Shown here one piece after another: positions 1-1,703 of a stretch of DNA of 10,851 nt. The translations under genes were made by a program, and so were the position numbers. Within the stretch, counting starts at the first letter, position 1, and each line of letters begins with the position of its first letter. The notes beneath the pieces are model-generated. The model was given only the letters and a program-made list of their open reading frames with translations, searched no databases and was not told where the DNA came from. Source of the DNA: Candidatus Jordarchaeales archaeon (GTDB lineage Archaea; Asgardarchaeota; Jordiarchaeia; Jordiarchaeales; Freyrarchaeaceae); assembly GCA_038858525.1 (NCBI GenBank), contig JAWCFL010000053.1, positions 1 through 10,851 on the forward strand. The letters run 5' to 3'.

Positions 1-217
1 TTCAGCTATAGGTGGGGACGCTTGGGATATGGATGTTCGGCCTGACATGAAAATAAAAAAAGTCAAAGAGGAAGTCGCTAAGAGAAAGAAGGTGCCTGAA
101 GACGCTATATCCATTGCTTTTAGAGGGTTCCAAGTTAACGATGATCGGACTATCGAGGAGTTGGGAGTAGAGGAAGGAGACAAGCTTTACGTGATAGTTA
201 GAGCAACTGGCGGCTAG
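1..217 (+). CDS. Ubiquitin-like modifier (eukaryote-like ubiquitin), 5'-truncated by the window edge
   Basis: The frame is open from base 2 (SAIGGDAWD-MDVRP...), so the ATG at 29 is internal. The 71 visible residues align without gaps to ubiquitin residues 6-76, with 18 identities by my count (G10, V17, P19, I23, V26, K27, P37, D39, F45, G47, Q49, D52, R54, T55, L67, R72, G75, G76). It ends RATGG-stop and lies directly upstream of E2 and E1 genes. Confidence 0.93.
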   Translation, partial: SAIGGDAWDMDVRPDMKIKKVKEEVAKRKKVPEDAISIAFRGFQVNDDRTIEELGVEEGDKLYVIVRATGG

Positions 218-246
218 AGAACTGTTGGAGGGGGGCCAAGTCAGAA

Positions 247-708
247 ATGCTAACTGATGAGCAATTTAGTTCACGACTGGCTTATGAAGCTAAAAAGCTG
301 CAGGAGGAAGAGCCCACTTTTAAGCCTGTGAACAACGACCTTACACACTGGAAAGGTGTGATACTAGGGACGGGGATATATGATGGAGGAGTCTTCGAGA
401 TAGAGATTTTCATACCTAGGGAATACCCTTTCAGACCTCCAAGGGTTCAGTGGAACACTCCAATATGGCACCCTAACGTGAGTGGAAAAAATGTCTGCGT
501 TGAAGTGCTCGGAAGGGACTGGACGCCTAACATGACAATAGTAGGTGTAATAGAAGTGTTACGAGCCCTCCTTAACTATCCAAACCCACATTCCCCCTTA
601 AATACTGAGGCAGGAAACCAGATGCTTAATGACAAGAAAAAGTTCGAGAAAATAGCAAAGGAATGGGTTAAAAAGTATGCTACTTGGAAGAATGTTTCCG
701 AGGATTAG
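247..708 (+). CDS. Ubiquitin-conjugating enzyme E2 (UBC fold), catalytic Cys present
   Basis: YPFRPP, WHPNV...C84 (codon 496-498), VEVLGRDWTP and PNPHSPLN all match UBC-family motifs. A GGAGGGGG RBS-like run lies upstream. Confidence 0.95.
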   Translation: MLTDEQFSSRLAYEAKKLQEEEPTFKPVNNDLTHWKGVILGTGIYDGGVFEIEIFIPREYPFRPPRVQWNTPIWHPNVSGKNVCVEVLGRDWTPNMTIVGVIEVLRALLNYPNPHSPLNTEAGNQMLNDKKKFEKIAKEWVKKYATWKNVSED

Positions 709-710
709 AT

Positions 711-1703
711 ATGAAGGAAGGAAGATATCATAGGCAGTGGCTCCTTGATAGTTGGGATCAAGATAAGGTTGGGAGTGCGCGGGTTTTTATCGCCGGAGTG
801 GGCGCTCTGGGTTCTGTTGCTGCGCTAAACTTAGCGATGATGGGCGTCGGGGAGCTGATTCTAGCGGACTACGATACTATTGAAGTGTCAAACCTCAGCA
901 GGCAACTTCTCTTCAGAGAGGATGACATAGGGCGCAACAAGGCTGAGGTAGCCCGTGAATTCCTCCTTGAAGTAAATCCTGACGTGTCCGTGAAAGCTTT
1001 CCCCAGTAACATAACCGAGGTTCCGAAAAGCGAGTATGAAGGGTGCAACCTGATAATAGATGGACTGGACACGTTTGAAGCTAGGCGATGGCTAAACTCA
1101 CTAGCTGTAGACATCAGAAAGCCTCTAATTCACGGCGGAATTTATGGTTGGTGGGGGAACATTCAAGTGGTTGTTCCATACGTCACACCCTGTCTTGAAT
1201 GCCACCCTTTAACACCGAGAAGAGAACTGGAGCAGCCCTGCACTCCAAAAGGCGAGAAGAGGAAAAAAAATGGAGGAGAAAATAGAGGCGAAGTTACGCC
1301 TGCCGTAGCAACGGTTAGCTGCATCATAGGAGGACTGCAAGCCCAAGAAGCAGTAAAGATAATACTTGGGTTGAAGCCGTTTGACAGCTACCTTTTTTAT
1401 GACGGTTTAAGTGGCGTGTTCACCTCTGTTAAGCTGGAGAGAAACCCTAAATGCGTGGTATGCGGTGAGGAGTATGCTACTGAGAGCATCGAGTTCGAGA
1501 TAAACCCGGAGGAAAACATACGGGAGCTTAAGGAGAGAATAAAAAAAGCGTTGGGTCTAAGCGATCCCGTAAATGTCACTTACGCGGCAAGGATCATAAG
1601 CGACGATGAAAAAGTGGGGGATGCTGTGAGGGAGGGGAATTACCTCTTTATTTATGACAAGACGAAGACTAAGCCATTCAAAGTGAAAATCAGGCTTTCT
1701 TAG
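711..1703 (+). CDS. Ubiquitin-activating enzyme E1 (ThiF/UBA-type adenylation domain plus C-terminal ubiquitin-fold domain), 330 aa
   Basis: RYHRQ, GVGALG (GxGxxG), DYDTIEVSNLSRQ, DGLDTFEAR, two CxxC Zn sites (CLEC, CVVC), a PCT catalytic-Cys motif (codon 1239-1241) and a ~70-aa beta-grasp-like C-terminal domain. ATG 711 is preferred over TTG 684 because it sits 2 nt after the E2 stop with GAGGA upstream. Confidence 0.93.
   Translation: MKEGRYHRQWLLDSWDQDKVGSARVFIAGVGALGSVAALNLAMMGVGELILADYDTIEVSNLSRQLLFREDDIGRNKAEVAREFLLEVNPDVSVKAFPSNITEVPKSEYEGCNLIIDGLDTFEARRWLNSLAVDIRKPLIHGGIYGWWGNIQVVVPYVTPCLECHPLTPRRELEQPCTPKGEKRKKNGGENRGEVTPAVATVSCIIGGLQAQEAVKIILGLKPFDSYLFYDGLSGVFTSVKLERNPKCVVCGEEYATESIEFEINPEENIRELKERIKKALGLSDPVNVTYAARIISDDEKVGDAVREGNYLFIYDKTKTKPFKVKIRLS

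Follow-up and report, generated by a model that had tools for sequence, protein, structure and literature searches.

The stretch of DNA considered here (the window, 10,851 nucleotides or 10.9 kb) is the entire contig C53 of a metagenome-assembled genome (MAG) of a Candidatus Jordarchaeales archaeon, a member of the Asgard archaea; the MAG comprises 2.09 Mb in 63 contigs and is 92.7% complete. Its first 1.7 kb carry, in the same orientation, genes for a ubiquitin modifier, a ubiquitin-conjugating enzyme (E2) and a ubiquitin-activating enzyme (E1). The window very probably opens inside a four-gene operon, which encodes in this order a RING protein of the srfp type (a ubiquitin ligase, E3), ubiquitin, E2 and E1, and of which the first gene and the first six codons of the second have been lost in an assembly gap. 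The locus is an already described eukaryote-like ubiquitin-tagging operon of Asgard archaea, real but ordinary. Archaeal systems with ubiquitin, E2 and E1 have been published for Aigarchaeota and Asgard archaea (PMC3082918, PMC5654768, PMC6043591, PMC9192718), and a survey of eukaryotic signature proteins in Freyarchaeia already counts ubiquitin, JAB and RING domains among them (bioRxiv 10.1101/2023.11.21.568159). The DNA runs in which the stretch is well covered are all hot-spring metagenomes.

The operon and the contig edge

The three genes of the window lie on the forward strand. The ubiquitin gene (Pfam PF00240), truncated at its 5' end, occupies positions 1–217, its frame being open from base 2. 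A spacer of 29 nucleotides (nt; 218–246) separates it from the gene for an E2 of the UBC fold (PF00179; 153 amino acids; 247–708, ATG at 247 and TAG at 706–708), and after a gap of 2 nt (709–710) follows the gene for the E1-like activating enzyme (PF00899; 330 amino acids; 711–1703, ATG at 711 and TAG at 1701–1703). An earlier note, made from the letters alone, had described three tightly coupled genes, with gaps of 29 and 2 nt, for a ubiquitin fold, a UBC E2 with its catalytic cysteine, and an E1 with a cysteine and a ubiquitin-fold domain (UFD). The gaps are borne out by the coordinates of the open reading frames (ORFs), and the protein assignments by Pfam, orthologue alignments and a structural model; the identity that the note gave to the whole, a eukaryote-like cascade of the Caldiarchaeum/Asgard type and not a SAMP/UbaA system, is upheld. 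One point needs correcting, namely that the ATG at position 29 is not the start of ubiquitin: the Pfam match begins at profile position 8, and the start in conspecific assemblies lies 17 nt to the left of base 1. As the window is the whole of contig C53, the gene is cut by the contig end; in conspecific assemblies the full gene encodes 77 amino acids, and base 1 of the window is its 18th base.

What lies to the left can be read from other assemblies. An exact look-up of the E2 protein returned eight public contigs of the same population (six from NCBI and two Logan assemblies), which share 99.75–99.96% DNA identity with the window over 6.7 kb and extend 4–6 kb further left. All eight have the same order: a flavodoxin-like gene, nadA, a RING gene of 77 amino acids, the 77-amino-acid ubiquitin, E2 and E1. 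The RING gene ends 12 nt before the ubiquitin start; its product scores 44.0 bits with Prok-RING_1 and 33.5 bits with zf-RING_2, and among solved structures the RING-H2 finger of RNF24 comes closest to it (E 4.6e-8). The MAG is without 1,536 bp, which correspond to L058:4219-5754 and contain nadA, the RING gene and the first 17 nt of ubiquitin. Base 1 of contig C31, at the very end of which sits the flavodoxin-like gene, corresponds to L058:4218, and base 1 of C53 to L058:5755.

The RING gene is also a regular feature of the order and recurs in other Asgard families. Each of the ten other genomes of the order has a small RING gene directly before ubiquitin, and the order RING-ubiquitin-E2-E1 is found in loci of 24 related genomes, these ten and 14 from other Asgard families. 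The eight zinc ligands (C-x2-C, C-x2-C, H-x2-H, C-x2-C) are kept in every one of the 16 aligned RING orthologues, as are a tryptophan and a hydrophobic residue before the second cysteine. These two residues correspond to the E2-contacting residues that were mutated in Caldiarchaeum srfp (PMC5654768).

One point speaks against the four-gene reading: the RING gene is absent from both window and MAG, and its presence in this organism is something that we infer from near-identical assemblies and synteny. Neither nadA nor an orthologous RING gene was found elsewhere in the MAG, and the first 15–55 bases of C53 overlap none of the 63 contigs. The alternative would be a minimal system that works without an E3, in which the operon truly starts at ubiquitin and E2 modifies its targets directly. 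It could draw on the lack of any RING or JAB gene after E1 within the window, on the weak, sub-threshold score of the sole RING-like match in the MAG, and on the finding that Caldiarchaeum E1 and E2 auto-ubiquitylate without an E3 (PMC5654768). However, the window comprises a contig in full and opens within ubiquitin, the RING gene stands 12 nt before ubiquitin in the eight assemblies of the same population and directly before it in all relatives of the order, and flanking synteny locates the 1,536-bp gap between C31 and C53, so that a system of this kind is extremely unlikely. The apparent lack of an E3 is an artefact of assembly, because the contig begins 17 bases inside the ubiquitin gene. 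The earlier statement that no E3 or JAB gene lies downstream is literally correct only for the DNA after E1, the RING gene sitting immediately upstream. The note had offered two explanations: leftward extension through the eight conspecific assemblies confirms the one that placed an E3 upstream of the window, while the other, a system independent of E3, finds no support with a RING gene before ubiquitin in the conspecifics and in the whole order. As a practical lesson, parts that seem to be missing at the contig edges of a MAG should be compared with sister assemblies before any biological reading is made.

The weak RING-like match just mentioned is a protein of 269 amino acids on contig C1 (14934–15743, minus strand; L017:6934-7746), which scores 16.9–20.4 bits with zf-RING_2, below threshold, and has an N terminus that appears hydrophobic by eye. 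As the E3 of the operon it was rejected: tblastn with the RING proteins of five relatives gave only a weak, paralogous C-terminal motif. As the only other RING-like match in the MAG, it is a possible second E3 candidate.

Ubiquitin, E2 and the activating enzyme

The ubiquitin frame ends in ACT GGC GGC TAG, that is Thr-Gly-Gly-stop, with the di-glycine at 209–214 and the stop codon at 215–217; the last residues of the protein are R-A-T-G-G. The truncated protein scores 43.2 bits with PF00240 (cut-off 25.4) and 39.3 bits with Rad60-SLD, and the full-length copy of a conspecific assembly 44.0 bits with PF00240. The closest single-domain solved structures are entries named 'Ubiquitin-like protein' (6fj7, 2mqj and 6fnn; about 51–52 bits), which we take to be Caldiarchaeum entries; eukaryotic ubiquitin reaches about 25 bits per repeat in the same kind of search. 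All 16 aligned orthologues have the di-glycine, which is directly followed by the stop codon in ten and by a tail of 1–10 residues in six, among them same-genus G002, whose ubiquitin ends in GG-W. As the gene ends in Gly-Gly-stop, the ubiquitin of this organism is predicted to be made in mature form, and a protease should be unnecessary for its maturation.

The 29-nt spacer after the ubiquitin gene holds a G-rich run, GGAGGGGGG (227–235), 11 nt before the ATG of E2. Most E2 orthologues have a comparable run before the start position, and the run of the window would act as a Shine-Dalgarno-like signal. In a sister family (genus g3) the spacer between ubiquitin and E2 is AT-rich and free of ORFs, and measures about 480 nt in the closed genome G006 (L054:9586-10065) and about 170–480 nt in the other four g3 genomes compared (L027–L030), as against 29 nt in the window; it could contain a promoter or a small RNA.

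The E2 scores 123.8 bits with UQ_con (PF00179; cut-off 27), and its top solved relatives are E2s of the Ubc4/UbcH5 class (about 109 bits). Its HPN motif comprises residues 75–77 (bases 469–477) and its catalytic cysteine is Cys84 (bases 496–498); H75, N77 and C84 are invariant among 27 Asgard orthologues, and P76 occurs in at least 90%. A search of 41 related Asgard genomes recovered an E2 in 34 of them, and the E2s of compared Asgard genomes outside the order are 48–63% identical to that of the window.

The start codon of E2 varies among the relatives. At the codon aligned with the ATG of the window (247–249), 8 of 26 Asgard orthologues have ATA and 4 have ATT (loci L022, L023, L024, L025, L027, L032, L035, L036, L040, L042, L043 and L046). 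In nine of these 12 the frame contains no ATG, GTG or TTG between the upstream stop codon and this position, and a G-rich run lies 6–10 nt upstream of the ATA or ATT. Many lineages, same-genus G001 and G002 among them, may thus begin E2 at a near-cognate AUA/AUU codon. A further observation concerns the sister family, where a second E2 paralogue (about 52% identical) lies about 1.4 kb from a second JAMM gene (G006:C1:1908428-1910767; also G007 C157, G008 C116, G009 C81 and G010 C61). No such second ubiquitin-like module of E2 and JAMM was found in the genus of the window.

Databases label the E1 merely as a 'ThiF family adenylyltransferase', and it scores 219.5 bits with ThiF (PF00899; cut-off 28.1). 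The ThiF adenylation domain spans about residues 5–255, with a GxGxxG motif and two zinc pairs, C161/C164 (1191–1202) and C248/C251 (1452–1463). The candidate catalytic residue is Cys177 (bases 1239–1241; motif Q-P-C-T-P) in the crossover loop; the P-C-T of this motif resembles eukaryotic E1 motifs. The glycines G29, G31 and G34, D120, C161, C164, C177, C248 and C251 are invariant in 30 Asgard orthologues. The nearest homologues are from Freyarchaeota (71% and 63% identity), Jordarchaeales (65%) and Jordarchaeum (53%), followed by those of Loki-, Hel-, Odin-, Thor- and Hodarchaeota; the E1s of compared Asgard genomes outside the order are 42–49% identical. The protein has one ThiF domain only and no inserted FCCH or SCCH cysteine domain, the stretch from C164 to the helix at residue 200 being a loop of about 35 residues. 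In a scan of 86 E1 homologues, SCCH, FCCH and 4HB domains were confined to long UBA1-type proteins, with SCCH present in 9 of 10 of these.

The C-terminal tail is where the E1 departs from MoeB and its kin. It gives a sub-threshold match to the ubiquitin family (17–21 bits; PF00240 20.6 bits), and an AlphaFold model built from a 30-row alignment (mean predicted local distance difference test score, pLDDT, 84) has beta-grasp secondary structure at residues 259–329 with pLDDT 82–90. On the model and the weak PF00240 match, a UFD is placed at about residues 258–330 (1482–1700, forward strand). Residues 6–253 superpose equally well on ThiF (Z 31.7), MoeB (31.4) and UBA3 (30.6); however, only canonical E1s align over the whole model, residues 6–330, namely UBA3 (2nvu_B, from the complex with trapped Ubc12), SAE2 (9dqb_B) and UBA1 (9qgg_B), so that the beta-grasp domain is placed like a canonical UFD. 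When the UFD (255–330) was modelled together with the E2, the interaction prediction score from aligned errors (ipSAE) was 0.66 (runs 0.65, 0.66 and 0.69), the best of three controls giving 0.00; at least 96% of contacts agree between runs, and the pLDDT of the partner is at least 90. The mark applied is one that 58 of 80 solved complexes attain, as do 2 of 110 mismatched pairs; the calibration is only rough here, as the alignments were our own. In the modelled interface the UFD sheet faces E2 residues 4–20 and 27–33, which form helix 1 and the loop after it. Contact between the UFD of an E1 and helix 1 of an E2 is the canonical mode of E1-E2 docking. The complex model supports, short of proof of binding, a recruitment of E2 by the UFD through helix 1.

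Scores alone do not place the E1 among its relatives. The best partial NCBIfam scores are 156 bits for MoeB, 147 for ThiF and 119 for UbaA, all far under the cut-offs and non-discriminating. Among solved structures UBA1 reaches 141 bits in total (best domain 82) and ThiF 118 bits in one domain, UBA1 heading the PDB list only because its two domains sum. In a search of 1.8 billion proteins, MoeB-size, ~410-amino-acid and UBA1-size proteins were intermixed at 130–165 bits. The rankings being undecided, a tree was built from the N-terminal adenylation core (158 rows, 174 columns), with 13 named Asgard proteins, 142 representatives of the exhaustive search, Escherichia coli MoeB and ThiF, and a paralogue from the MAG itself, a separate ThiF-family protein of 246 amino acids on contig C4 (262 bits). 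The tree rests on a short alignment and has no labelled UbaA, its UBA1 side includes 20 unnamed proteins of 216–560 amino acids, and its Asgard group was defined after the tree had been seen.

The quick maximum-likelihood tree gathers the Asgard E1-like proteins into one group (support 84 in the Shimodaira-Hasegawa-like approximate likelihood-ratio test, SH-aLRT). A second clade, of 45 rows (SH-aLRT 94), takes in the C4 paralogue together with E. coli MoeB and ThiF but not the E1 of the window, and the UBA1-type proteins make up a third. The grouping with MoeB, ThiF and UbaA that the earlier note had named as contrary to its reading did not appear, deep branches being weak. A tree constrained to unite the Asgard group with the UBA1-side clade is 72.5 log-likelihood (lnL) units better than the free quick tree (p-AU, from the approximately unbiased test, 0.973), and as the constrained search scored better, the free search was sub-optimal. 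On this tree the E1 appears to stand outside MoeB/ThiF, and kinship with eukaryote-type E1s has the better support, short of proof.

The same comparisons bear on a different function, in which a MoeB/ThiF/UbaA-like activator would thiocarboxylate a beta-grasp protein, as in sulfur-carrier or SAMP-type systems, and conjugation would be secondary or absent; such a system would serve molybdopterin, thiamine or tRNA thiolation. It fits the MoeB, ThiF and UbaA partial scores, far below cut-offs as these are, the superposition of the adenylation domain, which is best on ThiF and MoeB, and the free quick tree, in which the Asgard clade stands beside MoeB/ThiF in an open fork. It fits poorly with the translational coupling of E1 to a UBC E2 with HPN motif and cysteine, with the RING gene that heads the operon, and with a UFD that MoeB, ThiF and UbaA lack. 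Moreover, it is the C4 paralogue that falls in the MoeB/ThiF clade, the E1 of the window standing outside, and the tree joining Asgard and UBA1-side proteins is the better one by the margin given above. A sulfur-carrier role is on this evidence very unlikely, and ubiquitin conjugation is the preferred function.

Candidate genes for tag removal and reading, and the proposed cascade

The earlier note had supposed that JAB and ESCRT (endosomal sorting complexes required for transport) genes might lie elsewhere, and a search of the genome found them. A JAMM protein of 235 amino acids is encoded on contig C1 (PF01398, 49.7 bits), and in it the glutamate and the HxH...S-x2-D motif are preserved. Among solved structures it scores highest with the '26S proteasome regulatory subunit N11-like protein' 6fjv/6fnn (88.7 bits), behind which eukaryotic RPN11 and CSN5 rank; we take 6fjv/6fnn to be Caldiarchaeum Rpn11. 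The conspecific assemblies show no JAB gene up to 6 kb to the left or right of the operon, and among the loci compared a JAMM gene stands beside the operon only in G031. A JAMM protein of the C1 type occurs in 32 of 41 related genomes, and in all seven genomes where no E2 was found this JAMM was not found either, a pattern no more than consistent, since kin are not independent. In two same-genus genomes the matches to this JAMM (G003:C11:32548-33213 and G001:C103:33601-34305) contain one or two in-frame stop codons.

The ESCRT genes are spread over three contigs: on C3 a UEV-Vps23core gene, Vps28 and a Vps22/36-like EAP30 gene stand in a row, on C21 Vps4 and Vps25 are adjacent, and C54 carries Snf7. 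In seven genomes of other families (G011, G021, G022, G030, G031, G036 and G040) the operon lies 1.5–3 kb from a UEV-Vps23 gene; in the genus of the window it is not near one.

Compared with the Caldiarchaeum operon, the locus unites the same four protein types, its E1 likewise has a single ThiF domain with a C-terminal ubiquitin-like domain, and its RING protein, like srfp, keeps the cross-brace ligands and the E2-contacting tryptophan. The gene order differs, however, being RING-ubiquitin-E2-E1 here and ubiquitin-E2-E1-srfp in Caldiarchaeum. The ubiquitin ends in Gly-Gly-stop, whereas that of Caldiarchaeum has a nine-residue propeptide removed by Rpn11; the Rpn11-like gene is unlinked, on C1, and not adjacent to the operon; and the RING has cysteine at ligand 4, histidine at ligands 5 and 6, and one extra residue between ligands 4 and 5. 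With other Asgard systems the locus shares orthologous genes and a common order, RING-ubiquitin-E2-E1, and the genome has UEV-Vps23, Vps28, Vps22/36, Vps25, Vps4 and Snf7, but unlike the Asgard clusters of ubiquitin and ESCRT genes this operon stands beside no ESCRT gene. The closest published parallel is the occurrence of two separate regions, ubiquitin and ESCRT, in Lokiarchaeota (PMC9192718).

The E1 can be set between two better known kinds of enzyme. Like the canonical eukaryotic E1s (UBA1, UBA3-NAE1 and SAE2-SAE1) it combines an adenylation domain and a UFD in the same relative position; unlike them, it has no inactive adenylation half, partner subunit or FCCH/SCCH domain, and its cysteine lies, much as in enzymes of MoeB/UbaA size, on a crossover loop some 25 residues long. 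With MoeB, ThiF and UbaA it shares a ThiF-fold domain of some 250 residues that carries two zinc pairs of the CxxC type (root-mean-square deviation 2.0 Å over about 220 residues), but the systems of these enzymes and SAMP have no E2, RING or UFD.

From homology and models, on which all steps rest, the following course may be proposed. Ubiquitin would be translated already ending in Gly-Gly, with no need of a maturing protease. The minimal ThiF-type E1, probably a homodimer like MoeB and UbaA, would adenylate its C-terminal glycine and take it as a thioester on Cys177 of the flexible crossover loop. The UFD would dock helix 1 and the beta1-beta2 loop of E2, and ubiquitin would move to Cys84 of E2; the 77-amino-acid RING protein would then bind the charged E2 and stimulate transfer to target lysines. 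The unlinked Rpn11-like JAMM protease would remove the tag, and the UEV-Vps23/Vps28/Vps22 ESCRT proteins, encoded elsewhere, are its likely readers. The Caldiarchaeum homologues of all four operon proteins form an E1/E2/RING cascade biochemically in vitro (PMC5654768), and ubiquitin reading by UEV-Vps23 ESCRT-I has been shown for other Asgard lineages (PMC9192718).

Several points, on the other hand, tell against this scheme. The cascade in this lineage would rest on homology and models, its biochemistry coming from Caldiarchaeum only. The catalytic loop of E1 (residues 176–197) is modelled at low confidence, with pLDDT below 50; the agreement between UFD and E2 may mirror likeness to solved complexes, since a textbook pair was modelled; and the deep phylogeny of E1 is weak, the free quick tree setting the Asgard clade next to MoeB/ThiF at a fork that it does not resolve (support 83). 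Alignment to ubiquitin puts alanine, phenylalanine and glutamate where ubiquitin has I44, K48 and K63, and for this reason chain types or topology and reader contacts may differ from eukaryotic ones. Finally, short, low-depth Logan contigs from RNA libraries of one sediment study cover positions 371–704, 765–977 and 1261–1848, one of them spanning 1456–1848 (the end of E1 and a small ORF described below), and a further piece lies at 2424–2565, in the downstream nucleotidyltransferase gene; no such contig was found over 1–370 or 1871–2420. These contigs are a weak hint of E2 and E1 expression, and cannot prove transcription, an operon transcript, its start or its strand.

Neighbouring genes and significance

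Tail-to-tail with E1, and overlapping its last 14 nt, lies a four-cysteine zinc-ribbon ORF (about 48–55 amino acids; 1690–1857, minus strand), recognised by its conservation in orthologues. The CPxCG...LCVxC pattern is kept in 8 orthologues, with 43–86% identity across the order. The ORF is present in all four f1 genomes and in 4 of 6 f2 genomes, and it adjoins E1 wherever both share a contig; the same query gave no match in 30 other Asgard genomes. No family of Pfam, NCBIfam or PADLOC fits it, an Atlas look-up gave just generic zinc ribbons, and gene callers list it in one of the eight conspecific assemblies. It is an order-specific neighbour of E1 that may belong to the ubiquitin system.

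Further downstream, between the ubiquitin operon and a conserved membrane-protein gene, lies a pair of genes of the HEPN and helix-turn-helix nucleotidyltransferase (MNT-like) kind (1973–3233, minus strand). The pair was found only in this species, apart from a partial HEPN match in G001, and it looks recently inserted, because it is absent at the same place in G002, G003 and G004. The HEPN gene (1973–2493, minus strand) encodes 88 amino acids that match profile positions 4–73 of 117; the rest, with the R-x4-Y motif, follows in the -1 frame, in an ORF of 89 amino acids that overlaps the first. The split is not an error of this assembly, since it is the same in all eight conspecific assemblies, and it may stem from the decay of a toxin gene, from a programmed shift or from a mini-intron.

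A gene pair of this kind, 0.5 kb from the operon, might point to a ubiquitin-like conjugation module directed against viruses, akin to bacterial Bil or CBASS Cap2/Cap3, and the PADLOC models E1-E2 (Cap2) and BilD do match the adenylation domain, weakly and partially (35–70 bits). But E2, ubiquitin and RING match no PADLOC model, and the HEPN/MNT pair is confined to this species in the manner just described. The operon, by contrast, is conserved across the order with stable housekeeping neighbours (nadA, glyA, pyrG and purA), which is not the pattern of a mobile defence island. An anti-virus role is scarcely credible, and the locus is better taken as the Asgard ubiquitin-tagging operon.

On the other side of the locus, on contig C31, an unannotated protein upstream contains a short repeat (C31:2920-3069; L058:1419-1526) that varies in copy number among the conspecific assemblies, with gene lengths of 645, 659 and 673 amino acids.

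It is conceivable, but rather unlikely, that the Jordarchaeales operon is under a lineage-specific control that involves the zinc ribbon, the ATA/ATT start of E2 and the mature ubiquitin, for which no published description was found. If this were true, the zinc ribbon could be a dedicated partner of the cascade, serving it for instance as an adaptor for substrates, as a regulator or as a further zinc-finger cofactor; the ATA/ATT start, seen in about half of the orthologues, would make E2 translation deliberately weak or coupled; and a mature ubiquitin without equivalents of I44, K48 and K63 would point to mono-ubiquitin signalling independent of a protease.

Jordarchaeia have been published as (hyper)thermophiles (PMC10307638), and if this organism is one, its four small proteins could suit reconstitution and structural work. 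More broadly, the ubiquitin systems of Asgard archaea bear on the origin of eukaryotic ubiquitin signalling and of its link to ESCRT. To these the locus adds a case from hot-spring Jordarchaeales/Freyarchaeota, with a compact operon, a ubiquitin free of processing, and unlinked Rpn11 and ESCRT genes, and it leaves the current picture unchanged.

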